The notes under the pieces were generated by a model. It did not search any database, was not told where the DNA came from, and was given only the letters and a program-made list of their open reading frames with translations. Source: Nitrosotalea sp. (GTDB lineage: Archaea; Thermoproteota; Nitrososphaeria; Nitrososphaerales; Nitrosopumilaceae). Taken from it: 64,000 nt of DNA. Shown here piece after piece: positions 4,785-59,847 of the stretch (position 1 is its first letter; each line of letters opens with the position of its first letter). The stretch covers positions 8,591 to 72,590 of the forward strand of contig JARCRW010000017.1 of assembly GCA_029850515.1 (NCBI GenBank), written 5' to 3'. A program made the translations under genes and the position numbers.

Positions 4785-5348
4785 TTGTTAAAATCCGTTT
4801 TACTAGTGATTTCAATTTTATCTGTAACCCTGATGGTGCAGTCATTATTTTCTACAGCACATGCACAAGAAAATAGTCCAATGCAACAAGTGACACAAAG
4901 TGGTGTAACCATGCAGTTTACGTATTCCCCATCAAGCCCAAAAATCAATGATTATACTACATTGATGTTCTCCATGATAAATTCCACAACTGGAAAACAA
5001 GTACAAAACTATGTGGGATCAGTTACCATAGGCAATGTGGTTGGATTTACTGGTGGGAGTGGATATTACAACTTTAGTAAAATAACAGTTACAAACGGGA
5101 CTTTTTCAGTAAGTTATGCTTTTCCAAATGATGGCGTATTTCCAGTATTCTTCCGTGCAGATCATTCCACACCAATTTATGGATCAGGTAGTCTAATCAC
5201 AGTAGGAGTTTTCAAAGTAATCGTTCCCCCCCAAGCACCTTCCAGTGACTACAACACAATGATTTATGTCGTAATAGGAGTTGCAGTTGCAGCTGGTGGT
5301 GGGACTGTGATTGTCATCATGAAGAAAAGAAAACCCACCGTCCATTGA
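4785..5348 (+). CDS. Secreted/surface protein with signal peptide and C-terminal TM anchor
   Basis: TTG start, hydrophobic N-terminus ending AHA, beta-rich body, C-terminal hydrophobic helix followed by KKRK. Confidence 0.8.
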   Translation: MLKSVLLVISILSVTLMVQSLFSTAHAQENSPMQQVTQSGVTMQFTYSPSSPKINDYTTLMFSMINSTTGKQVQNYVGSVTIGNVVGFTGGSGYYNFSKITVTNGTFSVSYAFPNDGVFPVFFRADHSTPIYGSGSLITVGVFKVIVPPQAPSSDYNTMIYVVIGVAVAAGGGTVIVIMKKRKPTVH

Positions 5349-5592
5349 TTATCAAATCTAAATTTAATTTGTAGTTATAAAAGAGTAATTTAGCAAGTAT
5401 TGAATTGAGATTCCACGTCCCAGATATTCCAAACATGCTAAAAAAATCAATGCAAATACGATTAGTTTTGATTTTAGATTTATCAACAACGCAATAATCA
5501 TAAAACCAAGTTAGATGCCTCTAGTTGCATGTAATCATAGGGATTTATTCAGATTGACATTTTAAACAAAAAAGTTGTGAAATGGGTTGGCC

Positions 5593-6063
5593 CTATCCAC
5601 GTATAAGGTCAGCCCATGATTTTCGCTCTTCCATGGGAACATCATGTGGTCTTCCTTCTGCTTTCTCTTTTATCAGATCAGCCGCCATCTCTGCCTCAAT
5701 TTGTAGCTCTTCTTCAATTCTTCTTGAGAACAAGCCAGCAGGCCCAGATATTTTGTAGTTCATGCTAATTTCCAAAAGAGTTGCATTTCCCAGTGCGCTC
5801 AAAAGAAAATCCTTTGTTCCAGTTATCACGCCCTTTGTCCAAAGTACATGCAATTCTCCTTTGGGCACAAGTGTAATCTTTTGTAGGCACCTGTCTACCT
5901 TGCCTATGATAACTTCTCTAACAATCTCATTTTCTTTCTTTGAGATGTTTCTAATTTTTTTAGTCAAATTCCAGAACTTGGGATCATCATCAACTTTTGA
6001 TACCACGTCGTACACCTTTTCTATTGGTGCACCAATCTGTATTCTGACTTTGATTTCTACCAT
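5593..6063 (-). CDS. SRPBCC/START-like (polyketide cyclase) fold protein
   Basis: N-terminal I-x-I-x-AP-x-E-x-VY pattern and helix-grip length typical of SRPBCC. Confidence 0.75.
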   Translation of the reverse strand: MVEIKVRIQIGAPIEKVYDVVSKVDDDPKFWNLTKKIRNISKKENEIVREVIIGKVDRCLQKITLVPKGELHVLWTKGVITGTKDFLLSALGNATLLEISMNYKISGPAGLFSRRIEEELQIEAEMAADLIKEKAEGRPHDVPMEERKSWADLIRG

Positions 6064-6185
6064 GTCATATAATTAGTGATTCCGGAATAAATCATGTGTG
6101 TATACATTGTAAGACGATTGTGTCAGCAGGGCGAGTAATTGCTCATCGTATCATTTCTTAAATATTTAGAAATCAACTACACACC

Positions 6186-6722
6186 ATGGAAGAGACACAC
6201 CATAACAAGAAAAAAACATCGACCATAACATTCAGATTTGATTTAGATCTTATAGACAGGCTACACAAAGAGGCCAAAAATCATCAAGTAAATACCAACA
6301 CACTTGCAACCCAAGCCTTGAAAAGATTCCTAGAGTGGGACATCTACCAATCAAGAATAGGTCTGGTCAGCCTTAACAAATCTGTGTTTACAAAAATTTT
6401 TGACGGTTTAAGTGAAAAGAAGATAATAGAAATCGCATCCATTGGGAAAGACGAAATGCGCGATATTGCAATGTTCATGAAAGGAGAGACCGACATTGTT
6501 TCCTTTATGCTATGGTTTGAGATGCAAATGATCAACTCCTCTGTTCAGGTAAGTCACATGTCTAATAATGGGACCCATACTTTTGTTATGAAACACGATA
6601 TTGGTAAAAACTGGTCACTATACAACAAGATAGTCTTAGAGCTCATCTTCGAAGAGTTGTTCCACAAAAAAATTGACGTCAAATATGACAAGAATATGTT
6701 TGCGCTCAAATTCTCAGAATGA
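6186..6722 (+). CDS. Ribbon-helix-helix DNA-binding protein with C-terminal domain (thaumarchaeal family)
   Basis: KKTSTITFRFD beta-ribbon followed by two helices (LIDRLHKEAK; TNTLATQALKRFLEW). Confidence 0.7.
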   Translation: MEETHHNKKKTSTITFRFDLDLIDRLHKEAKNHQVNTNTLATQALKRFLEWDIYQSRIGLVSLNKSVFTKIFDGLSEKKIIEIASIGKDEMRDIAMFMKGETDIVSFMLWFEMQMINSSVQVSHMSNNGTHTFVMKHDIGKNWSLYNKIVLELIFEELFHKKIDVKYDKNMFALKFSE

Positions 6723-6907
6723 TTTGAAAATGAAATCCAGTTGCATAATTCTAAGATCATCCAACTTAATCATTTGAGGCAAGTTTCAAATGTATAAAAT
6801 AAGAAATCAGGGGAAAACTCATTAGCACCAAGACTGATTTAACCTCTACCGGCATACTTTTCATAGAGGCGAATACCTTTTATTCTAAGACAGTTCAAAT
6901 ACTGAAA

Positions 6908-7273
6908 ATGTCTAAAAAGATGCTAGTTTTTGCAGCTTTGTTTTCTCTTGTACTATCTATGACAGCAATACAAGAGGCAAGTGCTCTGACTAGAGGTACG
7001 GGCGAATATGGTCGTACCACGTCAATATTTAATCCAACCCAGGTCTGTGGCAACCACATCTGCCAACCCGGAGAGAGTACCAAATGGTCATCAGCTGTAT
7101 TATCATCACAGCGCCAAGGTCCAGGCAAAGCTACAGGTGCACAGTACGGATTCATCATAATGCATCAACTGGTTGTAAACTCTCTGGCAAGAACAGTCTA
7201 TGCAAATCAAACTACTTGGGACCATCCAGTCATGCCAGTACATACAAGCATGAATTCCACTGGATCAAAATAG
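6908..7273 (+). CDS. Secreted hypothetical protein with VCGxHxC disulfide motif
   Basis: Signal peptide ending ASA; VCGNHICQPGE motif. Confidence 0.75.
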   Translation: MSKKMLVFAALFSLVLSMTAIQEASALTRGTGEYGRTTSIFNPTQVCGNHICQPGESTKWSSAVLSSQRQGPGKATGAQYGFIIMHQLVVNSLARTVYANQTTWDHPVMPVHTSMNSTGSK

Positions 7274-8562: not shown

Positions 8563-9380
8563 ATGAATTTGATCCATTTGCAGCAGAGTGGATTTCTTAT
8601 GCAAAAAGTCCACAATACACGCTGATTGAAAAGTGTCTAAAACTATCTCAGATTCTAGAATTTCCTGATTTAGATATAACCGAATACATACAAAAATTGA
8701 GGACGTTTGAGCAAGGGCTACGTGATCACATATCGGATGTAAAAAACCCCATCTACCTTGTTTCCATGTTAAACGAGTACATGTTTGATGTCTTGGAGTT
8801 TGAAGGAAATAGTGATGACTATTACAATCCAAGAAATAACTTTCTAAATGTGGTAATTGACAAGCATACCGGAATACCTATCACATTGTCAATTATCTAC
8901 ATCGAGCTTGCAAAGGCAATAGGACTTGAGCTTCGCCCTGTTGGGTTTCCAGGCCATTTCCTTGTAAAGTATTCAGAGGAGCTTGTTTTGGATCCATTCA
9001 ATGGAGGCAGTCTATTAGATATTGAAGATCTGCAGGACATACTTGATGCCACATATGGTGAAGGTGTAGAGTTTGAGCCAGAATATCTAAATGACATAGA
9101 ACCAGAAAAGATTTTGATAAGAATTCTAAGAAACCTAAAGGGTTCGTACACCGAGTCTTTCAATTATGAAAAAGCAATGCACTGCATCAACATGATACTT
9201 GGCCTTGATCCCAACTCACCAGAAGATATCAGAGACAAGGGAATTATTCAGACAAGACTATTGCAAAATGATCTTGCGTTGACATCTCTTAACAAGTATA
9301 TCGAACTTGCTCCAGAAGCAGATGATGTTGATGACATATTAGAGATGATAAAAAACATCAAAGAAAAATCTAGTCAATAA
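8559..9380 (+). CDS. SirB1-like protein (Transglut_core2 domain plus TPR)
   Basis: YYNPRNNFLNVVID, GIPITLSIIY, GFPGHFLV, DPFNGG, ILIRILRNLK, C-terminal TPR helices. Start overlaps the upstream stop (ATGA). Confidence 0.88.
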   Translation: MNEFDPFAAEWISYAKSPQYTLIEKCLKLSQILEFPDLDITEYIQKLRTFEQGLRDHISDVKNPIYLVSMLNEYMFDVLEFEGNSDDYYNPRNNFLNVVIDKHTGIPITLSIIYIELAKAIGLELRPVGFPGHFLVKYSEELVLDPFNGGSLLDIEDLQDILDATYGEGVEFEPEYLNDIEPEKILIRILRNLKGSYTESFNYEKAMHCINMILGLDPNSPEDIRDKGIIQTRLLQNDLALTSLNKYIELAPEADDVDDILEMIKNIKEKSSQ

Positions 9381-28084: not shown

Positions 28085-30166
28085 ATGCGACTTAGAAAAT
28101 TTAGAGTTCAAGGCTATCGTTGCATTCATGATTCAGGGGAAATCAAAGTTGGGGATCTCGCAGCATTTGTTGGAAGAAATGAAAGTGGCAAAACTACAAT
28201 TTTAGAAGCTCTTACGTTACTTAACAAAGATACAAAACTTTCTGAATTAGATTTGTGTGATGAAATGAATGAGGAACTCAAGTCCGAGATAAGATTGGCA
28301 GAGGGAGAATTTGTGCTAAGTGAGAAAGAGACCGCATTAATTCGAGAGAAATTTCCAAACCTTCAGGACATAAGAAAGATGAAGATCTATAGGACGAATA
28401 AACATACTAGAGTACAATATGATTTTGGTGATGTAAAAATCAGCGGCGAGGCAAGTAAAAGACTCAACTCTTGGGAAAATTTTGTAGAGAGAATCAAGTC
28501 TTTTGTAGCAGCCATGCCAAACCCAATACGAATCAGAGTTGATACCAAGTTTCTAAATGCCCCACCACCACGAACCCGAGAAGTCTTTATGGATATGATG
28601 GCCGAATTTAACAATAACATTTACCTGATTGCATCACAGGAACCTCAGGTGATTTCAGAATGGAAAGACATCTACCAAGATTTGGAAACCATATTTGACA
28701 ACATGTTAATAGGAACAAACGAACGTTCTGCCCTAGATAATTTCATAGAGGATAAGTTACATCCAAGATTTGTCTACTTTTCAGACTACAAAAAAATACT
28801 TGGAAATATTGATCTTGAGGAATTTGTCAGGGAGACAAAAGGGATTAGATCAAAGGGATTAGAATATGTTGAAGAGTTTGACAAGGCAGAGACTGTAAAT
28901 AATTTATTTTATCTAGCAGAGCTTGATGCTCAGAAGCTAGAAGAGGTTAGAAGCAGTCCATCAAGATTGATAAAATTATTACACACTGCAAGTAGAAGGC
29001 TCAGTGAGAAACTCAACCCGGCTTGGAAGGGAGACCCCATTCATGTTGAACTCAGATGGAATCCTGGAAATGTTTTGAGCGTAGTCATATCAGACGTACA
29101 CAAGGATGGCACTGTGACAAATACCGGGTTACTTAATAGAAGAGCAGAAGGGTTCAAGTGGACTTTTTCATTTATCGTAAACTTTGCAGCGGAGACACAA
29201 AAAGCAGAACTAAAGGAAGCAATACTTTTACTTGATGAGCCTGCCAGAAATCTCCATCCTGCACAGCAGAGAGGAATTTCAGACTTGCTAAAAGGACTTG
29301 CGGGTTCCAATCAAATACTTTATGCAACTCACTCACCCTTTATGATATTTGATTACACACAAGGAAATCTGTTGGTAGTAGAGCTTGACAAGAGAAGGCA
29401 TCTAAGTAAGATCTATTATGATTATTGGAATGCAGACGATCAAACTCTTATTCCAATATTGTATGGTCTGTCAAGAGGCCTTGTAGAATCTATAGTAGAC
29501 AAACAAATAGGCTTCAACTCTAGGCCTGTGATAATAGTTGAAACCATGTCAGATTGCATGTATCTAAATGCATTTGACAGATTCCTAAAGGATCCAAATC
29601 TTTCCATGAATCCACTTAACATAGTTGCAGCATACAATAAGAATTCGGTTATGCCACTTGCAATATTTTATAAAAATCATGGGTATGATACTTTTATACT
29701 ATTGGACAATACGGAGGAATCAAGAAAAATTTCTGCAGAACTACAGTCTAATGAATTTAAATCAGTACAAATGGTCTTTTTTGAACTTGCAGGACAACCA
29801 AAATTGTTCATCGAAGATCTTTTGGTGGAAGATGATTATCTTTATGCGGTAAACCAAACTTATGAAGTCAGATTAAGAAAAGAGGGGTATGTAACATTGA
29901 CCAAAGATCAGGTGGCAAGCAAGGGCAAGAAAAGCATAATAGACAATCTAAATGAAATTTGGAAAGAAAACCAACATCTGGGTTGGGAGAAATTTGACAG
30001 AGAGGATATTTGCAGATATATTTGTGAGAAGATAGTATTAGGTGAGACAGACTTTTTATCAGATAAGACAAAGGACCAATTTAGGTCATTGTACAGATTG
30101 ATTGCAGAGAGAATAAGACAGAATCAAAACCTAGGAATCCAGTCATCTGCAACCAGTAATCGATGA
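28085..30166 (+). CDS. ABC/SMC-type ATPase fused to a TOPRIM-like domain (OLD/YbjD-like)
   Basis: GYRCIHDS, GRNESGKTT, LLLDEPARNLHP, YATHSPF, then IIVETMSD...LLDNT...IEDL. Confidence 0.75.
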   Translation: MRLRKFRVQGYRCIHDSGEIKVGDLAAFVGRNESGKTTILEALTLLNKDTKLSELDLCDEMNEELKSEIRLAEGEFVLSEKETALIREKFPNLQDIRKMKIYRTNKHTRVQYDFGDVKISGEASKRLNSWENFVERIKSFVAAMPNPIRIRVDTKFLNAPPPRTREVFMDMMAEFNNNIYLIASQEPQVISEWKDIYQDLETIFDNMLIGTNERSALDNFIEDKLHPRFVYFSDYKKILGNIDLEEFVRETKGIRSKGLEYVEEFDKAETVNNLFYLAELDAQKLEEVRSSPSRLIKLLHTASRRLSEKLNPAWKGDPIHVELRWNPGNVLSVVISDVHKDGTVTNTGLLNRRAEGFKWTFSFIVNFAAETQKAELKEAILLLDEPARNLHPAQQRGISDLLKGLAGSNQILYATHSPFMIFDYTQGNLLVVELDKRRHLSKIYYDYWNADDQTLIPILYGLSRGLVESIVDKQIGFNSRPVIIVETMSDCMYLNAFDRFLKDPNLSMNPLNIVAAYNKNSVMPLAIFYKNHGYDTFILLDNTEESRKISAELQSNEFKSVQMVFFELAGQPKLFIEDLLVEDDYLYAVNQTYEVRLRKEGYVTLTKDQVASKGKKSIIDNLNEIWKENQHLGWEKFDREDICRYICEKIVLGETDFLSDKTKDQFRSLYRLIAERIRQNQNLGIQSSATSNR

Positions 30167-30273
30167 GGCAGAAAATATCAGCATTTGTACTTTACTCATA
30201 AATCATACCAGAACACAAGACGATAAAGTAGAATTTCTTATTAAGATTTAATTTAGAGAGAGGTTGTGAGTCT

Positions 30274-32475
30274 ATGAGTAACGTGTTATTAAAATCAGTT
30301 ATTGTTCTTGCTTTACTTTTGGGCAGCGTATTTACAACATGTGTCGTATACCCAGTTTATGCAGATTCAGGATTTGTAACTGTAACTGCAACTAATGCCG
30401 GGGGACAAACGGTGATTTCAGTTAGCAATAGTGCAAATAATACTGGAAATATTGTTTCATTTACTTTGCAGATAACCGGAGGAGGTACCTTCAAATCATT
30501 CAATATACAAAACGACTGGACAGGTGCAAAGACTTCACCAACTACTGTGGCATTTAGTGCAATAGCTCCACTTGCTCCAGGAATGACAACATCTTTTGAA
30601 ATCCAGACAGACCAGCAAGCACCAACCATGACTTGGAAAACATCAGATGGAGAATCAGGCCAGATAGGAGTTCAGCAGACTAATACCAACTCAATAGGAG
30701 AGACTACTCAACAACTTGGTAATAATTTGGGCAGCAATCCCAACAACAATCAGAATACTAACAAAACATCAGAGACTACTCAGACAATACAACAACCGCC
30801 CAAAGGCATACTTGATACATCAACATTTAGAATCATTCCTTCCACCCCATCTCCAAATTCTCACATTCGTGTAGTCGGTTTTAGTTTTTCAGCACTGACC
30901 AGTCTTGATTTGTACATAGGCAATGACAAGATAGGCTCATTTTCATCGGATGACAAAGGAAACTTTGTCACAACTGTACTTGTACCAGACTCAGAACAGC
31001 CAGGCAGTGTCAACTTTATTCTAAAGGATCAGCAAAATAACCAAAAAACATTCTCTACAAATATCAAGGCACCATCAAGTCGTAACAGTGGTCCAGTTAC
31101 AAATATCCCTCTGACACTAAACGTTGATCCCATATACCATAGAGGAGAGACAAAGACAATTAATGGTACAGATAATCCTCAGAGCACCATAACTATAACC
31201 CTGCTAGATCCAAAAGGAAACCCAATAACAACTTCGGTGGTACAATCAGATAAAGATGGAAATTATGCAATGAAAGACGTAGTGCCAACTGATAGAGATT
31301 TTGGTAAATATTCAGTTACAGCATCAGATGGAAAGAATCAGGTAACTAAACAGTACAACGTTGTTACAACCCACAATATTTCAGTTGTGTCATCTGCTAC
31401 AAGATACGAACCGGGACAAATAGTTGTCATAAATGGCACCTCAATCTCAAATCAGCTCGTGCATTTTGTAGTGACAGATCCTACCAATCAACCCATTTAT
31501 TCAAAGGATGCAAATGTTACATCGGCAGGCACAGTTTCCATGTCATACCAGTTAGATGATTCAGCCATAAAAGGAACCTATGAGGTAACCGCAACACAAG
31601 GCACTGATCTTGTGACTATTTTCTTTGGAGTAGGCCAAGACGTATCTCCACCCATAACAGCAACATTAGACAAGCTTAGTTATCAGAATACAGACAATCC
31701 TGTTGTAAGTATTACAGGCCCTCCATCCTCAACTCTGAATCTTATCATAGTAGACCCTTCCGATACACAAAAGTTTGCAGACATTATCAATCTAGGATCA
31801 AGTGGACAGGCAACATATTCATTTAATTTGACTTCATATACACCGGGAATTTATTCCGCCGTAGTCTCTCATGCAGAAGAAAAAGTGGAGAAACCATTTG
31901 CAGTAGGACTTTCAACTAATACTGGACAAATTTCACTTAGTATTGTAAAGGATTCATACTTGCCAGGAGATAACATCATAATTATTGGAACCACTGCCAA
32001 TGCAAATAGCCTTCTCCAAATTTCCTTGACTGACCCTAATGGACAAATAGTAAAGACAATACAGACATTCTCAGACAAGACGGGTCACTTTTCTTCATTT
32101 GATTTCAGCCTCCCGTCTACTGCAATTCCAGGAACATGGAAACTAGATGGTACCAGTGGAGTCAATCACTCATCCGTACCATTAATTGTAAAGTCATCAA
32201 AACAAGCAATCACCGTTTCTCTGGATAGGTCTTCAGGCGCATACACAAGAGGAGATATTGTAACAATCTCTGGAACCGATGCAGGTGTTACTGCAGAAGT
32301 TGACATCACCATAAACGGCAATAGCACTGTTATTGACAAATTGCCCACTTCGTCAACAAACCGAGGAGACTATAGTACAGCTTGGCAAGTTCCACGCGAT
32401 GTCAATCCAGGAACATATACAGTTGAGGCATCTTCCATTACAGGCAAAGCAACAATCAGCATAACAATTCAATAA
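30274..32475 (+). CDS. Large secreted multi-Ig-like-domain surface protein
   Basis: Signal peptide (VYA), N/Q/T-rich linker, repeated beta-sandwich modules (ITLLDPKG, VVTDPTN, IIVDPSD, LTDPNG; GxYxV); no C-terminal TM anchor. Confidence 0.82.
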   Translation: MSNVLLKSVIVLALLLGSVFTTCVVYPVYADSGFVTVTATNAGGQTVISVSNSANNTGNIVSFTLQITGGGTFKSFNIQNDWTGAKTSPTTVAFSAIAPLAPGMTTSFEIQTDQQAPTMTWKTSDGESGQIGVQQTNTNSIGETTQQLGNNLGSNPNNNQNTNKTSETTQTIQQPPKGILDTSTFRIIPSTPSPNSHIRVVGFSFSALTSLDLYIGNDKIGSFSSDDKGNFVTTVLVPDSEQPGSVNFILKDQQNNQKTFSTNIKAPSSRNSGPVTNIPLTLNVDPIYHRGETKTINGTDNPQSTITITLLDPKGNPITTSVVQSDKDGNYAMKDVVPTDRDFGKYSVTASDGKNQVTKQYNVVTTHNISVVSSATRYEPGQIVVINGTSISNQLVHFVVTDPTNQPIYSKDANVTSAGTVSMSYQLDDSAIKGTYEVTATQGTDLVTIFFGVGQDVSPPITATLDKLSYQNTDNPVVSITGPPSSTLNLIIVDPSDTQKFADIINLGSSGQATYSFNLTSYTPGIYSAVVSHAEEKVEKPFAVGLSTNTGQISLSIVKDSYLPGDNIIIIGTTANANSLLQISLTDPNGQIVKTIQTFSDKTGHFSSFDFSLPSTAIPGTWKLDGTSGVNHSSVPLIVKSSKQAITVSLDRSSGAYTRGDIVTISGTDAGVTAEVDITINGNSTVIDKLPTSSTNRGDYSTAWQVPRDVNPGTYTVEASSITGKATISITIQ

Positions 32476-52695: not shown

Positions 52696-52902
52696 ATGAA
52701 AATAAAGTGTCCCAAGTGTGACAAGATAGCAGAGTTGGGAGATGATTTTTCCTATGTCAAATGTTCAAACTGTTCACTTGACATATCATATGGCGAATAT
52801 GTGAAACTTATCGCTTACAAGGATGCAAGATATTCAGATGTTTTAGGAGATTATGCCAAAGATACTAGTGGTACTACATCCGGAACTCTTGATGATTGGT
52901 AG
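52696..52902 (+). CDS. 68-aa zinc-ribbon protein
   Basis: CPKC...CSNC, acidic C-terminus. Confidence 0.8.
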   Translation: MKIKCPKCDKIAELGDDFSYVKCSNCSLDISYGEYVKLIAYKDARYSDVLGDYAKDTSGTTSGTLDDW

Positions 52903-52954
52903 AAAAAAAATCCACTGCAAGACTTATGTAATTTCAGAAGGCAGCAATATCTAG

Positions 52955-53599
52955 TTGGAATTTATAACTTTTGCAGAATCTGCTCTCAATCTTTTAGGCT
53001 TTGTAGTTGGACTAATCTTAGGAATCTTTGCATATATTGGATTTAGAAATACTGGCAGCCCAACACTCTTTAGATTGAACATTTCTTTTTTTTCAATCAG
53101 TATAGGATTTGGTGTTGTTGGGTTTGGATACATGTTAGAGTCTTTTGTCTTGGGTTATGTCAAGATAGATACTTGGATTCAAACATTAGGCATAGGAATT
53201 CAAACGGTAGGATACTTTTTCATAGCATTCTCTCATGGAATAAAATCATTTTTTCCAAAGTCTAGGTACTTCAAGTCTATAGTGGCTCCTCTTTTCATCA
53301 TTCCAGCTAATTCAATTGAGCATATTATAAGGTCAATTTCTTTTATCCTATTGGTATATGGGACAATTGAGACCATAATGTCCTATATGGAAAATAGAAA
53401 TAGAAATACTATTTTCGTAGCTGCAGGCCTGGGATTACTTGCACTGGGCGAGTTTTTGGGGTGGTATTCGATTGTATTTCCAAAATCAGTGTTGTATTTT
53501 GTCTCAGTATCTACAAAGATAGTTGGATTAGGAGCACTCTTTGTTCCAATTTCTCAGGTTCCATTAAGAGGAGGACCAAGATTTGGCAATAACATATAG
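52955..53599 (+). CDS. Multi-pass membrane protein (about 6-7 TM)
   Basis: Successive hydrophobic helices; TTG start; overlaps the downstream wHTH gene. Confidence 0.82.
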   Translation: MEFITFAESALNLLGFVVGLILGIFAYIGFRNTGSPTLFRLNISFFSISIGFGVVGFGYMLESFVLGYVKIDTWIQTLGIGIQTVGYFFIAFSHGIKSFFPKSRYFKSIVAPLFIIPANSIEHIIRSISFILLVYGTIETIMSYMENRNRNTIFVAAGLGLLALGEFLGWYSIVFPKSVLYFVSVSTKIVGLGALFVPISQVPLRGGPRFGNNI

Positions 53600-53873
53600 A
53601 ACTCACATGAGCATAATAGGAGACATCCTTTCTACTACGAGGGATGAAATTCCTGACGAGTCAGGAGCTAGTGTAACATACTTAATCCGAAAGGCAAATG
53701 TTTCATATGCCAGACTTTCAAAAATTTTAGAAACTCTTGTTTCACAAGGTCTTTTGGAGCAGACAAGCTCTGAGAGAGCTTGCAAGTACAGAATTAGTGA
53801 GAGAGGAAGAGAATTCCTTCAGGCATATCGAGGATTTAGAGAATTTGCAGACTCGTTTGGTCTGAGAATTTAA
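53583..53873 (+). CDS. Archaeal winged-helix regulator (HTH_45-like)
   Basis: YRTHMSIIGDIL...TYLIRKANVSYARLSKILETLVSQGLL...YRISERGREFL. Confidence 0.85.
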   Translation: MAITYRTHMSIIGDILSTTRDEIPDESGASVTYLIRKANVSYARLSKILETLVSQGLLEQTSSERACKYRISERGREFLQAYRGFREFADSFGLRI

Positions 53874-54228: not shown

Positions 54229-54819
54229 GTGATTTTACCGTGTAATGATACTATGATAAAAAAGGCGTATGAAATCATACAAAAGGGAGGAACCGTAGTG
54301 TTTCCTACCGATACAGTATATGGAATAGGCTGTGATCCACGTAACCAAGATGCCGTTAACAAGATTTACAAAATAAAGGGCAGAGAAAAAACGAAACAAC
54401 TTCCGGTTTTGGCATACTCAAAAAAAGACATTGCAAACATAGCATTTTTTGATGAGATTTCTGAGAAAATAGCAGACAAGTTTTGGCCTGGTCCAATTAC
54501 GTTGATTCTCAGAGTCAAGGACAGGAAAATTGAAGAGACCCTTGATCTTAAAGGCAAGATTGCAGTGAGGGTTCCCAATCATCCTTGTGTACTTGCCCTT
54601 TTGGAAAAATGTCGATTGCTTGTAGGTACTAGCGCAAATTTTTCCGGGAAATCATCATTTAGTGACTCTAAAGAAGTGGCAAGTAAATTCTCAGGCTACG
54701 ACATATTGCTTGACGGAGGACAAATTACCGACTCGTATGAATCCACCATAGTTGAAGTTGTAAATAATGAATTAAAAATAGTAAGAGAAGGCAAAATAAA
54801 AATGGAGTCGCTGGTGTGA
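54229..54819 (+). CDS. tsaC: L-threonylcarbamoyladenylate synthase (TsaC/YrdC domain only)
   Basis: VFPTDTVYGIGC, KGR, FWPGPITL, AVRVP, TSANFSG; no C-terminal SUA5 domain. Confidence 0.93.
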   Translation: MILPCNDTMIKKAYEIIQKGGTVVFPTDTVYGIGCDPRNQDAVNKIYKIKGREKTKQLPVLAYSKKDIANIAFFDEISEKIADKFWPGPITLILRVKDRKIEETLDLKGKIAVRVPNHPCVLALLEKCRLLVGTSANFSGKSSFSDSKEVASKFSGYDILLDGGQITDSYESTIVEVVNNELKIVREGKIKMESLV

Positions 54820-55337
54820 ATTTAGTTGTAACGTGCAGCAGACATCTGGAGGAAGAGGCATGTAATGAAATTTCTGAAATTATTGAAGATCTCGGGGATG
54901 ATTCACCCAGAATAGGAAAATCAAGTTTCTCTGGGATAATTTGGGTTGACACTTGCATCGATCCATTTTCTGTGATAGACAACATCAAAAAAATAATTCT
55001 AGACGAACCATGGAGAATGAGATATTGTCACAGATTCATACCAATCAGACATACTACTTCGTCCAATCTTGAAAACATTGCAGAGGGCGTAAAAAACCAA
55101 ATCAAAGTCATGAAGGACACAGATACTTATAGAATCACAATTGAAAAAAGAGGATCAGACATATCCTCAAAAGAATTGATAAATTCAGTTGCGGATATAA
55201 TTCCAAACAAGGTATCTTTAGAGTCTTATGACTGGAATGTCATGATTCAGATAATGGGCGGTATCGTAGGCATTTCCATACTAAAAGAAGAAGATATTGT
55301 GAGTACGTTAAGGCTCAAACGAGATTCAATGGAATAG
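54816..55337 (+). CDS. Stand-alone THUMP-domain RNA-binding protein
   Basis: TYRITIEKRGS...IPNKVSLESYD-x-NVMIQI; coupled to tsaC by a GTGA overlap. Confidence 0.85.
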   Translation: MNLVVTCSRHLEEEACNEISEIIEDLGDDSPRIGKSSFSGIIWVDTCIDPFSVIDNIKKIILDEPWRMRYCHRFIPIRHTTSSNLENIAEGVKNQIKVMKDTDTYRITIEKRGSDISSKELINSVADIIPNKVSLESYDWNVMIQIMGGIVGISILKEEDIVSTLRLKRDSME

Positions 55338-56105
55338 TGTTGCAGATCTTTCTACAAGCAAGTCTTCCAAGGGCGTCCTAGAAATAATACAGTCAAGTTC
55401 CTTCTGTGTCATTCCAAATTCTTTTTTTATGAATTTAGAATTGTCTTTTGGGAACACATTACTCTCTAAAAGATTTTTAATTTCATCAAATAGTTTTTCA
55501 AGCAATGATTTTTTTCCAATCATCACAAGTATGGTACCTGTATTTGTTTTCATACCGACTTTGGATATGGCATCACTAATTTGTCTAGTACATGCAAATC
55601 GCATGAGAATATCAGTCTCAATTTTATTTGAAAGTAAAGTATCTGCTCTTTTAGCAGATAAAGAAATTGCCACTGTTTTTTTAACATGTCCCACATTCAA
55701 GACATACGGTGCCTGAATTCCTTGGATGACAAGATCTGGATATGTCTCCCGAATAGATTCAAGAAATTTGATTGGTTCTTTGACAGTTTTTTTGAGTAGT
55801 ACAAGTTCTACAGTAGTGTTCATCAAATCAAACTGTATTCTTTTTGATCTTCCGCCATGAACCACTGGGATTATGCTTACAACATCCCCATTTTTTAACA
55901 AGGTCTCCTTTCCTTGTAACACAGACGAGTCTACCCCATTTACTGCAACTAAGATATTGTCTTGGTCAAGCTGGGGCAAATTTGTAGGTATAGATACCTT
56001 GAGACGATCCAATAGAGCAAATATAGTGATACCATCACTTTGAATTTCAAGTTTATTAGATGAAAATGATTTTCTCGCACCTCCCAGAAGCTTGACTATT
56101 ATCAT
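55326..56105 (-). CDS. cgi121: Fusion of Urm1/SAMP/MoaD-like ubiquitin fold (aa 1-85, ending HGG) to KEOPS subunit Cgi121
   Basis: LVAVNGVD...LKNGDVVSIIPVVHGG, then Cgi121 motifs (IQGIQ...HV...SNKIETDILMRFACTRQISDAISKVG...LLVERSA). Confidence 0.88.
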   Translation of the reverse strand: MIIVKLLGGARKSFSSNKLEIQSDGITIFALLDRLKVSIPTNLPQLDQDNILVAVNGVDSSVLQGKETLLKNGDVVSIIPVVHGGRSKRIQFDLMNTTVELVLLKKTVKEPIKFLESIRETYPDLVIQGIQAPYVLNVGHVKKTVAISLSAKRADTLLSNKIETDILMRFACTRQISDAISKVGMKTNTGTILVMIGKKSLLEKLFDEIKNLLESNVFPKDNSKFIKKEFGMTQKELDCIISRTPLEDLLVERSATLFH

Positions 56106-56153
56106 GGTACCATCAAAAGATATGTTAGACTATATCGAATTTTTGTAATGTAT

Positions 56154-56414
56154 CTAGTTGAGTATCTGTTCTTCAATCTCTTCAGTCTCATCAACTGATT
56201 CATCTGGAGCAACCACTTCAGACTCTTTTTCTTTCTGCTCCTCTAGTTCACGTCTGAGGTAAGAAGAAATGTAACCCGCAATTTCGTTCTTTAGACCTTT
56301 AGATCTCACAATTGCAACTTCGTTTAGAACCTGTTTGTTGTGCGCAAAATCAATATCAAATTTTCCTTTATAAGTAGACATGAGTTCTGTGGAAATTCGT
56401 CTGATTCTATTCAC
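56154..56414 (-). CDS. rps17e: 30S ribosomal protein S17e with acidic C-terminal tail
   Basis: F-x2-DF-x2-NK...SKGLKNEIAGYI. Start set at GTG 56414 with TATAAAAA about 25-30 nt upstream. Confidence 0.93.
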   Translation of the reverse strand: MNRIRRISTELMSTYKGKFDIDFAHNKQVLNEVAIVRSKGLKNEIAGYISSYLRRELEEQKEKESEVVAPDESVDETEEIEEQILN

Positions 56415-56445
56415 GGATTGGATGGGCCAAAGGGGTTTTTTATAC

Positions 56446-57201
56446 CTATACACCAAGATACGAATCGACATTTCTTTCTACAACAAGCAGCATTTCGTCA
56501 TATGATTTGTTTAGAATACTAGCAGCACAAAAAAGGACGCTTGGAAGAAATGCTATTTGCGCAGTTTTCATGCCAAAGCACTTGGAGAACTTCACAGGCC
56601 CATCAGTTTCCAACAATATTTTGTCCTGATGAGTTTGTGAAAGAAGGACTTGCTTGTCATCAGAGTATACCATTGCAGGTCCATACGACACAAAACAGTC
56701 TAATTCCATTGCTTTTTGCAATTGTTTTTTGCTGCCAGAAAACCAATGAAGTAAAACGCCTTTTATAGAATAAGAAGGGAGTATAGAAAAAATTTCATCC
56801 AGAGTTCTTCTTGAGTGAACAGATACTGGTTTCCCAAACTTTTCTGCAAGCGAGAGCATCTTTTGAAACACTAATACTTGCCTTGAGAATCCAGCCTCGT
56901 CTGAGACGTATGTCTTGTCAAGACCGATCTCACCTATGCCAGATATTTTGTTAGAGTTTTGAGTAACTAGTTCCACCATTGCATGTAGATCATCATCTGC
57001 TTTTTCGGGATGAATTCCAATAAAGGGAAGAACGAGGGAGCTGCGCTTACTCAGATCAAGTGTGGATTTTGAGCTCTGGTTATCCATAGACACACAGCAG
57101 GCCCTAATTTTCATTTTATCCATTGTAGTGAGTATGCATTCCATGTCATCAGAATATTCGTTGTCTGATAGATGGATGTGAGTATCAGTCAGCCAAGTCA
57201 T
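56446..57201 (-). CDS. tatD: TatD family metal-dependent hydrolase
   Basis: DTHIH, GIHP, GEIGLD, SVHSR, LHWFSG, LLETDGP. Confidence 0.93.
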   Translation of the reverse strand: MTWLTDTHIHLSDNEYSDDMECILTTMDKMKIRACCVSMDNQSSKSTLDLSKRSSLVLPFIGIHPEKADDDLHAMVELVTQNSNKISGIGEIGLDKTYVSDEAGFSRQVLVFQKMLSLAEKFGKPVSVHSRRTLDEIFSILPSYSIKGVLLHWFSGSKKQLQKAMELDCFVSYGPAMVYSDDKQVLLSQTHQDKILLETDGPVKFSKCFGMKTAQIAFLPSVLFCAASILNKSYDEMLLVVERNVDSYLGV

Positions 57202-57299: not shown

Positions 57300-57521
57300 A
57301 TGGTAACATCTGAATTTGGACTTTCTGTAATGTACAGAATTTTGAAAAAAGCAGGCGCGGAAAGAGTAAGTGATGAATCTGCCAACGAACTTCGAAGAAT
57401 ACTGGAAGAAATCGGTGTTTCAATTGCAAAAAATGCAGTGGAGATGTCAACACATGCAGGTAGAAAAACGATAAAATCAGAAGATATCAGACTGGCTGCA
57501 AAGCAATTTTCAAAATTTTAA
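57300..57521 (+). CDS. Archaeal histone (HMf family)
   Basis: RILKKAGAERVS...A...HAGRKTIK-x-EDI histone-fold motifs. Confidence 0.95.
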   Translation: MVTSEFGLSVMYRILKKAGAERVSDESANELRRILEEIGVSIAKNAVEMSTHAGRKTIKSEDIRLAAKQFSKF

Positions 57522-58086: not shown

Positions 58087-59847
58087 GTGAATTTGACTGA
58101 AAGAAGTAATGGTCTACTAGAATACATTCCGGGCGCAAAGCCTGTTTCATATCAGTACACCAATGGTCAACCATTGGATGGGTTTTCACAGAATGTCAAG
58201 GATAGTATAAAAGAATATGCGGAAAGTGCACAGAGCGAAGTTGAAAAAGGTCACAATTTCTTGCAGTGGGTTCTAACCAGAGTCTTTGAAGCAACGGAAG
58301 ATGATGCGACTGATGCCATAATAGACGGAGCAAATGATCTTGGAATAGATGCATACCTGCCAGTAGATTTCTCTGAAGACAAGATCTATTTATTCCAGTC
58401 AAAATATGGAACATCCCATTCAATTGAGGCCATTGCAAAGTTCAAGGAAGATGTCAAGAGGCTACAAGGAAGAGACATCTCCAAGATGCGTCCAGAACTT
58501 GCCCACTTGGTAACAAAAATTCAAGAAAAAAACCTCAAGATAGAATGCATCTATGTGACAGACCAGAAAGTGGAGGACGAGAATTTTGACGCAGTTGAAA
58601 TATACGATGTAGATGTGATAATACAGAAACTTTGGGACAGGATAAAAAAACCAGCAGCAGGCAAAAAAGCCCCCATCAAACTTGAAACCAAACTACGATA
58701 TCAGAATACGCTTCTTGGAATTTTAAAACTAAGAGAGCTTACCAATTTTGTCACAAAGAACAAGGACTATGTCTTTGAGTCAAACATAAGACAGTGGATG
58801 CAGTTCAAGACTACAGTAAACAAGGGATTGAGAGAAACTTTGCAAGAAGTACCTCACAAGTTCTTTTACTACAATAATGGGATAACAATAGTTGTAAGTG
58901 ATTTTGAGGAATTGGAGGATAATTCCATAATGTTACACTCCCCTCAGATAGTAAACGGGGCGCAGACATCAAATTCAGTATTAGATCACGCAAGACGTAC
59001 CCACAATTTGGATGGAAGTATAACGGTTACAATCATAAAGGCTGCAGATGAACTTGACCAAAATAACATTACAAAATATAGAAATTCTCAGAATGCGGTA
59101 AGAGGAAAAGATTTGGTATCCCTGATGGATTTTCACAAATCATTAAAATCACAAATGGAAAATATTCATTATTTTTATGAGATCCAGGGCGGCTCGTTTG
59201 ATACCAAGACAAAGTCTCATCAAAGTGAGTTTGTTGGAGATGCAATTTACAACAAATATCTGCCAGACAACCATAAAAAAGTCATAGTGGCAAAAGATGC
59301 CATACAGGCGTTTGTTGCAGGAATAGAACAAAGACCAACGGAGGCATATAGTTCTCCTGCGCAGTTCCTGCCAAGAGGTAGTAAGTATGACGAAGTCTTC
59401 AACGAGAAATTAAAGGATGATTATAGACTTCTCCTTTATCCGTACTGTGTAAAGGAATATGCAAAGAAAAACCTCAACTATGGAAAGAAAGGAGGTCACA
59501 AGACAAAAAGATATGCAACCTTGTTCTTTGTGGCAGTGTACTTTAAGATCCTTCATGAAAAGATCTTGTTTACAAAAGACGATTTTAAAGAAGACATATC
59601 CAAGCTAGAACCTGTATTCAAGAGTGTCAAGCTAAATCAACGCATACTCAAACTTACAGACACCATTGCTACCAAGTTCCTAGAAGATACTGTGGTTGAT
59701 GACGAAATGGCTGCTGCAAATACATACCATAATTTCTTCTCTCATCACGTATGGCAGGATTCCATGGTTCGTGTAATAGAGAAGAAAATAAAACAAGAGG
59801 AAGAAGAGATAATCAGCATTCAAAAAGTAGTCCAAGATCTTTTTTAG
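58087..59847 (+). CDS. AIPR family protein with N-terminal PD-(D/E)xK-like domain
   Basis: IIDGANDLGID...FQSK; FESNIR, VNKGLRETL, FFYYNNGITIV, QIVNGAQT, NSQN. Confidence 0.88.
   Translation: MNLTERSNGLLEYIPGAKPVSYQYTNGQPLDGFSQNVKDSIKEYAESAQSEVEKGHNFLQWVLTRVFEATEDDATDAIIDGANDLGIDAYLPVDFSEDKIYLFQSKYGTSHSIEAIAKFKEDVKRLQGRDISKMRPELAHLVTKIQEKNLKIECIYVTDQKVEDENFDAVEIYDVDVIIQKLWDRIKKPAAGKKAPIKLETKLRYQNTLLGILKLRELTNFVTKNKDYVFESNIRQWMQFKTTVNKGLRETLQEVPHKFFYYNNGITIVVSDFEELEDNSIMLHSPQIVNGAQTSNSVLDHARRTHNLDGSITVTIIKAADELDQNNITKYRNSQNAVRGKDLVSLMDFHKSLKSQMENIHYFYEIQGGSFDTKTKSHQSEFVGDAIYNKYLPDNHKKVIVAKDAIQAFVAGIEQRPTEAYSSPAQFLPRGSKYDEVFNEKLKDDYRLLLYPYCVKEYAKKNLNYGKKGGHKTKRYATLFFVAVYFKILHEKILFTKDDFKEDISKLEPVFKSVKLNQRILKLTDTIATKFLEDTVVDDEMAAANTYHNFFSHHVWQDSMVRVIEKKIKQEEEEIISIQKVVQDLF

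Follow-up and report, generated by a model that had tools for sequence, protein, structure and literature searches.

The fusion gene and its two domains

The subject of this study is a gene of Nitrosotalea sp. that encodes a ubiquitin-like (Ubl) domain joined in one open frame to Cgi121, a subunit of the KEOPS complex. It lies in the 64-kb stretch of contig JARCRW010000017.1 that was analysed here and that we refer to as the window (contig positions 8,591 to 72,590; coordinates below are counted from its first letter), where it occupies 55326..56105 on the reverse strand and encodes 259 amino acids (aa) followed by a stop. The first 85 residues (55851..56105) form a beta-grasp domain of the Urm1/ThiS/MoaD type, as judged from profile and Foldseek matches, and this domain ends in His83-Gly84-Gly85 (codons cat ggc gga, 55851..55859), with a putative processing site after Gly85. 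Three linker residues, Arg86-Ser87-Lys88 (55842..55850), lead into the Cgi121 domain, which takes up residues 89-259 and the stop codon (55326..55841) and is recognised by NCBIfam NF011465, Pfam CGI-121 and Foldseek. The sequence across the junction is cca gtg gtt cat ggc gga aga tca aaa aga ata cag ttt, which translates as P-V-V-H-G-G-R-S-K-R-I-Q-F; its Gly-Gly codons occupy 55856-55851 (-). A preliminary description of this DNA, made by a model from the letters alone, had placed the Gly-Gly codons at these positions and had read the gene as a beta-grasp domain that ends in HGG and runs in frame into a full Cgi121; the DNA, the open frame and the profiles agree with it on these points.

Several Ubl models end exactly at Gly85. 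The Pfam ThiS match covers aa 4-85 and the entire profile (1-76 of 76; E 6.5e-10, 39.9 bits versus a cut-off of 22.5), the Pfam Urm1 match reaches the end of its profile (96 of 96), and the profile ends of the NCBIfam models moaD_arch, Urm1_like and SAMP1 all coincide with aa 85. The Gly-Gly is hence found at the position of the C-terminal Gly-Gly of the family, while in the primary translation product it is followed by 174 residues and is not a free C-terminus. With the Urm1-specific models, the domain scores 22.3 bits against Pfam Urm1 (cut-off 21.8), over its last 36 residues only, and 26.5 bits against the NCBIfam equivalog Urm1_like, far below the cut-off of 70. When its sequence profile was compared with solved structures, the best matches were Urm1 proteins (2k9x, 4wwm, 2ax5). 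The C-terminal 170 aa score above the cut-offs of the curated Cgi121 models, with the NCBIfam equivalog NF011465 matching aa 105-257 (E 1.4e-32, 112.9 bits versus 40) and Pfam CGI-121 (PF08617) matching aa 116-251 (38.6 bits versus 25). The protein thus has the layout of a linear Ubl fusion, with an N-terminal Ubl, a conserved Gly-Gly at the junction and an unrelated folded protein behind it.

An AlphaFold2 model of the fusion protein, built on 62 homologues, has a beta-grasp domain at the front and a Cgi121 fold behind it, with a mean predicted local distance difference test (pLDDT) score of 86 and a predicted template modelling (pTM) score of 0.65. The last beta-grasp strand is formed by residues 75-80 and the first Cgi121 strand starts at aa 89. 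Between them, residues 83-85 (HGG) are the sole internal stretch with a pLDDT below 50, and this segment is therefore predicted to be flexible. For aa 89-240, in the Cgi121 part, the pLDDT is about 90 or higher, and in Foldseek searches this part matched solved Cgi121/TPRKB chains (4ww7_B, 6wqx_A, 8k20_C and 7kjt_H; probability 1.0, target-normalised TM-scores 0.6-0.69). The Ubl part matched SAMP1 (2l52), Ta0895, Urm1 (2k9x, 2ax5, 4wwm) and MoaD, as expected for a beta-grasp fold.

Occurrence of the fusion gene

The fused gene is real and not an assembly artefact. In one deep-branching relative (related loci are designated by L numbers; this one is L081), a single stop codon separates the Ubl and Cgi121 genes, so that a one-base error could mimic a fusion by removing a stop or by joining two genes through a frameshift. 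This explanation is vanishingly improbable for the gene studied here and was rejected. An identical fusion protein is encoded on an independent Logan contig, and contigs of four public runs, from mine drainage, soil and groundwater, are free of indels and substitutions at 55851-55859, which bears out the earlier statement that the junction contains no stop or frameshift. The gene is fused, in the same synteny, in all 66 species-representative loci of Nitrosopumilaceae that cover the junction (locus L063 is broken there), and the same fusion has been described from finished genomes (PMC2948915). A database search returned 1759 homologues of the fusion protein; of the best 120, nearly all carry both Pfam domains on a chain of 257-259 aa. 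A scan of genome contigs with the fusion protein recovered Nitrosopumilaceae and one bacterial match to the Ubl part only (L069); taxa beyond this family came from representative proteins and from one scan of metagenomes, and the taxon labels of relatives are taken from the source names. A search of public runs turned up no RNA run containing the fusion-gene sequence.

The fusion itself has been known since 2010, and the statement in the preliminary description that it had been noted in comparative genomics of Thaumarchaeota, but never tested, is correct. Makarova and Koonin (2010, Archaea 2010:710303; PMC2948915) described the Ubl-Cgi121 fusion of Thaumarchaeota, reported that the Nitrosopumilus maritimus gene is co-transcribed with rpS17e, and drew a parallel with the S17e-Urm1 neighbourhood of Sulfolobales. 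Their protein and the one encoded in the window belong to the same family and share domain order and rpS17e linkage; the window protein, an orthologue, is 42-48% identical to those of Nitrosopumilus loci and 75% identical to that of Nitrosotalea devanaterra. The conservation of the Gly-Gly, the variation of the linker, the split orthologues and the proximity of JAB genes, to which we turn below, are not part of that paper. A recent paper on the shuffling of archaeal Urm1 genes mentions neither Thaumarchaeota nor the fusion.

Conservation of the Gly-Gly at the junction

The junction was aligned for 294 proteins of two-domain length, 293 of which span it. The set combines hits among 50%-identity representatives, hits obtained with a Nitrososphaera-type protein as the query, and cluster members; it covers Nitrosopumilales, Nitrososphaerales and deeper lineages. 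Residues H83, G84 and G85 are invariant in the 62 Nitrosopumilaceae sequences. Among all 293 homologues, the His is present without exception and the complete HGG is kept in 284; the remaining nine sequences form one 90%-identity cluster (P0261, 'HCS'), the sole case without the Gly-Gly. Among the findings that the preliminary description had named as together refuting a precursor was a Gly-Gly not conserved in orthologues, and conserved it is. The residues that follow it are variable or gapped, and the distance from the Gly-Gly to the Cgi121 core ranges from three residues in the window to about 70 aa, with poly-Gly and Asn-rich inserts among the linkers. In proteins of the ThiS/MoaD/Urm1 type, the Gly-Gly tail lies outside the fold and serves to enter the active sites of E1 and acceptor enzymes. 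That an internal Gly-Gly has been conserved for so long while the linker beside it drifted therefore suggests a function of the Gly-Gly itself. In addition, proline never occupies the position directly after the Gly-Gly in 269 distinct junctions and occurs 15 times one position later. This absence would be consistent with a scissile bond at this site, although weakly, as the sequences are phylogenetically related.

These patterns bear on the question of whether the Ubl is simply an integral, uncleaved N-terminal domain of Cgi121, comparable to the UBL of Rad23 or parkin. Such a domain could regulate the binding of tRNA or Bud32 by Cgi121, or it could tether KEOPS to a partner, for example the E1-like enzyme, the NcsA thiolase, the proteasome or the ribosome. 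HGG would then be a hinge or a motif for contacts. A UBL domain that is integral has normally lost its Gly-Gly, whereas here it is retained in nearly all sequences. A linker whose length varies more than 20-fold also argues against a fixed geometry between the two domains, and the model points in the same direction, as its pTM is merely 0.65 despite confidently predicted domains and thus gives no strong sign of a fixed interface. We consider an uncleaved domain unlikely, though by no means negligible, and return below to what speaks for it. A free Cgi121 made from an internal start codon was rejected as a candidate: the sole nearby methionine, M95, is found in only about 80 of the 294 homologues.

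Split and tailed orthologues

In several Nitrososphaerales and deep-branching lineages, the same operon carries Ubl and Cgi121 as separate genes. In L071-L073, from three samples, the Ubl gene ends GTG CAT GGT GGT TAG TAG, and the ATG of a Cgi121 gene of 176 aa follows 18 nt later. A Nitrososphaeraceae metagenome-assembled genome (L074), which represents a cluster of 92 sequences, encodes an 85-aa Ubl ending in HGG and a separate Cgi121 of 189 aa. The deep-branching L081 has HGG-TAG-ATG without any spacer, with Cgi121 directly after, and in L145 the Ubl likewise ends HGG-stop and the Cgi121 gene lies 3 kb downstream. In a further group with a separate Cgi121 gene, the Ubl carries a short tail beyond the Gly-Gly: it ends HGGS in L127, HGGGTAF in L147, HGGSQKDL in L075/L076, HGGGPKAA in L130 and HGGSPKSA in L142. 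The break in all split orthologues is hence located at the Gly-Gly or no more than five residues beyond it. The close relatives L071 and L127 differ by one added residue after the Gly-Gly, and a crude neighbour-joining tree distributes the split forms over two or more clades that lie among fused ones.

Since the same operon occurs with separate genes in several lineages, the covalent linkage appears to be dispensable, and this comparative evidence suggests that the two halves can act as separate polypeptides. It also argues against an integral domain, as the break would then not be expected to sit at, or within five residues of, the Gly-Gly instead of at random in the linker. The short tails would have to be removed before any chemistry could take place at the C-terminus, and tails that come and go are what one would expect if an activity for Gly-Gly-directed C-terminal processing were present in these organisms.

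Some of the split loci contain further genes nearby. Between the Ubl and Cgi121 genes of L075 (8271-10847), L076 (5475-8051) and L145 (1260-4141), 2.5-3 kb of extra genes are found, among them one for a Gly-rich protein of 110 aa and one for a membrane protein of 242 aa. In L074 (5395-7035), genes for an Elp3-type radical-SAM protein and a class I lysyl-tRNA synthetase lie 3-7 kb from the split Ubl and Cgi121 genes. In eukaryotes, the U34 that is thiolated via Urm1 also receives its side chain from Elp3. An Elp3 homologue was not found in the 64-kb window by tblastn with proteins of the related loci.

Candidate proteases and the Ubl pathway

A gene of the Prok-JAB family with an intact HxH...S..D (JAMM) motif divergently adjoins the S17e-Ubl genes in L075/L076, L130 and L142. 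These loci, whose Ubl proteins are all tailed, form one clade ('Ca. Nitrosopolaris' by source names). A different JAB paralogue is located 2-5 kb upstream of the operon in three loci similar to that of Nitrososphaera gargensis, and there is no detectable pairwise similarity between the two paralogues. A JAB gene beside the Ubl gene was rejected as a general rule, as other Nitrososphaeraceae pair the first JAB with the aspartyl-tRNA synthetase (AspRS) gene: the Prok-JAB (M67) family of the tailed clade (L163-L167, ~5001-7241; L075, 5411-7671) elsewhere stands tail-to-tail with AspRS with an 11-nt overlap, accompanied by an unannotated protein of 165-175 aa. The best 120 matches to this Prok-JAB family, together with the cluster names, all come from Nitrososphaeraceae or Nitrosopolaris.

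In the window itself, tblastn with proteins of the related loci found no genes for JAMM proteases, E1, Elp3, AspRS or related proteins, Pfam scans of 39 window proteins identified no Ubl-pathway gene other than the fusion, and a scan for the ThiF-type E1 motif in 1.86 Mb of related loci found none. An inventory of the pathway can be taken from published genomes. According to Supplementary Table S1 of Makarova and Koonin (PMC2948915), N. maritimus and Cenarchaeum symbiosum each possess two JAB genes, one E1-like enzyme (arCOG01676), one PP-loop ATPase of the NcsA/Ncs6 family (arCOG00042) and only two Ubl-containing proteins, which the table does not name, and they have neither molybdenum cofactor (Moco) biosynthesis genes nor PAN. 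The text of the same paper describes Ubl-Cgi121 and Ubl-E1-TBP fusions for Thaumarchaeota. We take the two counted Ubl proteins to be these two fusions, in which case no Ubl would be free-standing and any canonical Ubl chemistry would need the Gly-Gly to be freed. Given this inventory, with two Ubl proteins and no Moco genes, a role of the Ubl in thiamine or Moco synthesis is unlikely.

Comparison with known systems

A close known counterpart of the Ubl domain is the Urm1 protein of Sulfolobales (Saci, Sso and SiRe). Both are beta-grasp proteins of 83-85 aa that end in His-Gly-Gly and are encoded beside rpS17e, and the Sulfolobus solfataricus protein (4wwm) is matched by the window Ubl in sequence profile and in fold. 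Sulfolobales Urm1, of 83 aa, is a proven protein modifier with a conjugation function and a link to the proteasome (PMC4569737, PMC12625751). In contrast to the internal Gly-Gly of the fusion, that of Sulfolobales Urm1 is a true C-terminus of a free-standing protein, and Sulfolobales lack Cgi121 (PMC2948915). Canonical archaeal and eukaryotic Cgi121/TPRKB proteins in turn have no N-terminal Ubl, whereas the C-terminal 170 aa of the window protein fit the family and its fold.

A precedent for processing exists in Deinococcus, in which the JAMM protease DRJAMM cuts the natural MoaD-MoaE fusion DR2607 and exposes the C-terminal glycine, a step required for activity; HvJAMM1 likewise cuts linear SAMP1 fusions (PMC8832034). 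As in the window protein, a Ubl of the ThiS/MoaD type is joined via Gly-Gly to a downstream partner. The two differ in that MoaE uses the carrier to which it is fused, while Cgi121 is not known to make use of a thiocarboxylate, and its release from the Ubl is putative.

Eukaryotic ubiquitin is made in a comparable way. Ub-L40, Ub-S27a and polyubiquitin are N-terminal linear Ubl fusions that are cut after the Gly-Gly, and the partner of the first two comes from the translation apparatus. Compared with these precursors, the window Ubl is of the Urm1/ThiS type, its likely protease would be a JAMM enzyme and not mainly a cysteine deubiquitinase, and its partner is a subunit of a tRNA-modification complex, with rpS17e as an unfused neighbour.

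A proposed route from precursor to products

We propose that the fusion protein is a linear precursor that is cut after Gly85 into a Urm1-like carrier or modifier and Cgi121, a reading to which, on comparative grounds, we assign a probability of roughly 0.55. The gene encodes the Urm1-like domain ending in His-Gly-Gly in one piece with Cgi121. A Gly-Gly-directed protease, most likely one of the two JAMM/MPN+ (M67) metalloproteases encoded by these archaea, would cut after Gly85. The cut would free the C-terminal glycine of a Urm1-type protein for activation by the single E1-like enzyme, after which it could act as a thiocarboxylate sulfur donor for the NcsA/Ncs6-type tRNA 2-thiolase, be conjugated to proteins, or both. 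The released, normal Cgi121 would join Bud32, Kae1 and Pcc1 for the synthesis of N6-threonylcarbamoyladenosine (t6A); Cgi121 proteins bind Bud32 as well as the 3' CCA end of tRNA and stimulate t6A formation. The fusion most likely arose by loss of a stop codon between old operon neighbours in the order (TatD)-S17e-Urm1-Cgi121, and this old order of S17e, Urm1 and Cgi121 would explain why the Ubl is linked to Cgi121 in particular. We further propose that the fusion was tolerated because an activity for C-terminal processing was already present. Joint synthesis might in addition assist folding, equalise dosage or time the release.

The gene structure, the pattern of conservation, the split orthologues and the gene contexts are observed; the cleavage, the protease, the activation by E1 and the downstream use in 2-thiolation of U34 (s2U34) or conjugation we infer. 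The preliminary description had set a precursor and an uncleaved Ubl side by side. The comparative evidence favours the former, given the conserved Gly-Gly, the split orthologues, the JAMM genes near the operon in two clades and the precedents for processing. The same description had suggested one-to-one production of the carrier and the KEOPS subunit and a mechanistic coupling of s2U34 to t6A37; both are possible but speculative.

Several observations weigh against cleavage, and some of them support an integral domain directly. A lineage labelled 'Nitrososphaerota archaeon' (L079, 8001-8735; P0261/P0414) has retained the fused Ubl in the same operon, with the Gly-Gly replaced by Cys-Ser (STLHCS); the domain can therefore persist without the Gly-Gly site. 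In the family of the window protein, merely three residues precede the first Cgi121 strand, a very short linker. The two domains have stayed fused in most of the class, in Nitrosopumilales, Nitrososphaerales and deeper lineages, which hints at a benefit of the covalent linkage. Neither the window nor the surrounding 10 kb in any of 68 Nitrosopumilaceae loci yielded a JAMM, E1 or NcsA gene, so that in this family no protease gene is linked to the operon. The adjacency of JAB and Ubl in the tailed clade is, by the comparison of loci, one evolutionary event, specific to that clade, as the conserved neighbour of this JAB family in other Nitrososphaeraceae is AspRS. The count of no free Ubl derives from arCOG numbers of 2010 for two genomes, neither of them that of the organism studied here. 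Our searches of the later open-access literature retrieved no paper testing the fusion or its cleavage, and Makarova and Koonin, who first described it, thought of regulation of KEOPS by SAMPylation or of coordinated function, not of processing (PMC2948915).

Cleavage might also be conditional. The fused Ubl would then keep Cgi121 inactive or stabilised until its release by a JAMM protease, and processing would be a switch that controls KEOPS assembly, Ubl supply or both. What speaks for a functional Gly-Gly applies equally here, and there are related cases: in Haloferax, molybdopterin synthase is inhibited by covalently attached SAMP1 until HvJAMM1 removes it (PMC4443979), and the DRJAMM-dependent activation of MoaD-MoaE has been linked to oxidative stress (PMC8832034). 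The sequence data say nothing on regulation, though, and the lineages with split genes manage without such a switch. We judge conditional cleavage distinctly improbable, and it would be a refinement of the proposed precursor more than an independent alternative to it.

A wider form of the precursor proposal concerns the Nitrosopumilales as a whole. If every Ubl of this order is an N-terminal linear fusion, either Ubl-Cgi121 or Ubl-E1, the entire Urm1/SAMP-type system would depend on the processing of precursors by JAMM proteases; the Ubl-Cgi121 gene lies in an operon of the translation apparatus next to rpS17e, and the release of the Ubl could possibly time or dose the assembly of KEOPS, and with it t6A37, together with thiolation of U34 or urmylation. 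We regard this extension as doubtful at present and offer it as speculation.

Neighbouring genes and the remainder of the window

Downstream of the fusion gene lies a gene for a threonylcarbamoyl-AMP synthase of the TsaC type (short Sua5/YrdC; 196 aa, 54229..54819 (+); Sua5_yciO_yrdC, E 2.5e-54), which scores 171 bits against TIGR00057 (cut-off 123) and lacks the C-terminal SUA5 domain. It overlaps by 4 nt with a gene for a stand-alone THUMP-domain protein of 173 aa (54816..55337 (+); Pfam THUMP, E 2e-6). As the preliminary description had stated, and as coordinates and Pfam matches bear out, both genes converge on the fusion gene, and the 3' ends of the THUMP and fusion genes overlap by 12 nt. 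The tsaC-THUMP pair adjoins the Ubl and Cgi121 genes in most Nitrososphaeria loci that extend downstream, those of deep lineages included, while the THUMP gene or the pair is absent beside them in L080 and L082. The THUMP protein may be a candidate tRNA-binding partner for the t6A pathway.

On the other side of the fusion gene, rpS17e is found at 56154..56471 (-), listed with 105 aa and with a Pfam Ribosomal_S17e match that begins at aa 22. Of 79 related loci that include sequence upstream of the Ubl gene, 78 keep the order S17e then Ubl, and one, L082, is without S17e; the overlap between S17e and Ubl is 4 nt in Nitrososphaerales. Orthologues of rpS17e have been called at 54-99 aa, and the long form as listed overlaps the 3' end of the TatD gene by 26 nt. 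Given the shorter orthologues and the late beginning of the Pfam match, the true start of rpS17e is probably later than listed. The same-strand block starts with a gene for a TatD-family hydrolase (56446..57201 (-); TatD_DNase, E 2.7e-47), the synteny of which is conserved, and a histone gene follows beyond it at 57300-57521 (+). The label 'tRNA-modification cluster' given to this neighbourhood in the preliminary description suits tsaC, the THUMP gene and Cgi121, but not rpS17e, which encodes a ribosomal protein.

Overall, the window is a typical Nitrosotalea-like thaumarchaeal segment with genes for a eukaryote-type topoisomerase IB, RadA, Nop5/fibrillarin, Trm1, topoisomerase VI and Rio1. 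Kae1, Bud32 and Pcc1 did not turn up among the scanned window proteins, with no search aimed at them. Three further regions attracted our attention. At 58087-59847 (+), a 586-aa protein of the AIPR family is encoded (PF10592 on the N. devanaterra orthologue), which is 93-98% identical among Nitrosotalea-like loci (84-88% in more distant ones) and about 75% identical to that of Nitrosopumilus. The identities of its neighbours in these loci are far lower (Ubl-Cgi121 72-75%, tsaC 73-82%). Conservation as strong as that of the AIPR protein is unusual in a family that takes its name from abortive phage infection. A three-gene block at 52696-53873, 85-100% identical across Nitrosotalea-like loci, encodes a Cys-rich 68-aa protein (CPKC...CSNC), a 214-aa membrane protein with a weak DUF7521 match and a winged-helix HTH_45 protein. 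Finally, genes at 28085-32475 (+) encode a 693-aa AAA_15/AAA_21 (OLD/AbiEii-like) ATPase and, behind it, a 733-aa protein with an MG2 (alpha-2-macroglobulin-type) domain.

Implications

To the fusion described in 2010, the present analysis adds the conservation of the Gly-Gly at the junction, the split orthologues, the proximity of JAMM genes and an inventory of the pathway. Together, these sequence comparisons suggest that a precursor is the better reading of the gene, which is thereby strengthened yet unproven. If the protein is left uncut, it would represent a rare KEOPS subunit with a built-in Ubl, whose Gly-Gly is intact but unused. If it is processed, archaea related to the eukaryotic stem would make a Urm1-type modifier in the same way as ubiquitin is made, as a precursor fused to a translation-related protein, and the logic of a Ubl precursor paired with a JAMM protease would reach back to Ubls of the sulfur-carrier type. 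A likely sulfur carrier or modifier would also have been identified for the globally abundant ammonia oxidisers. Should all Ubls of the Nitrosopumilales turn out to be processed fusions, they would be the closest prokaryotic counterpart of the eukaryotic ubiquitin-fusion genes.

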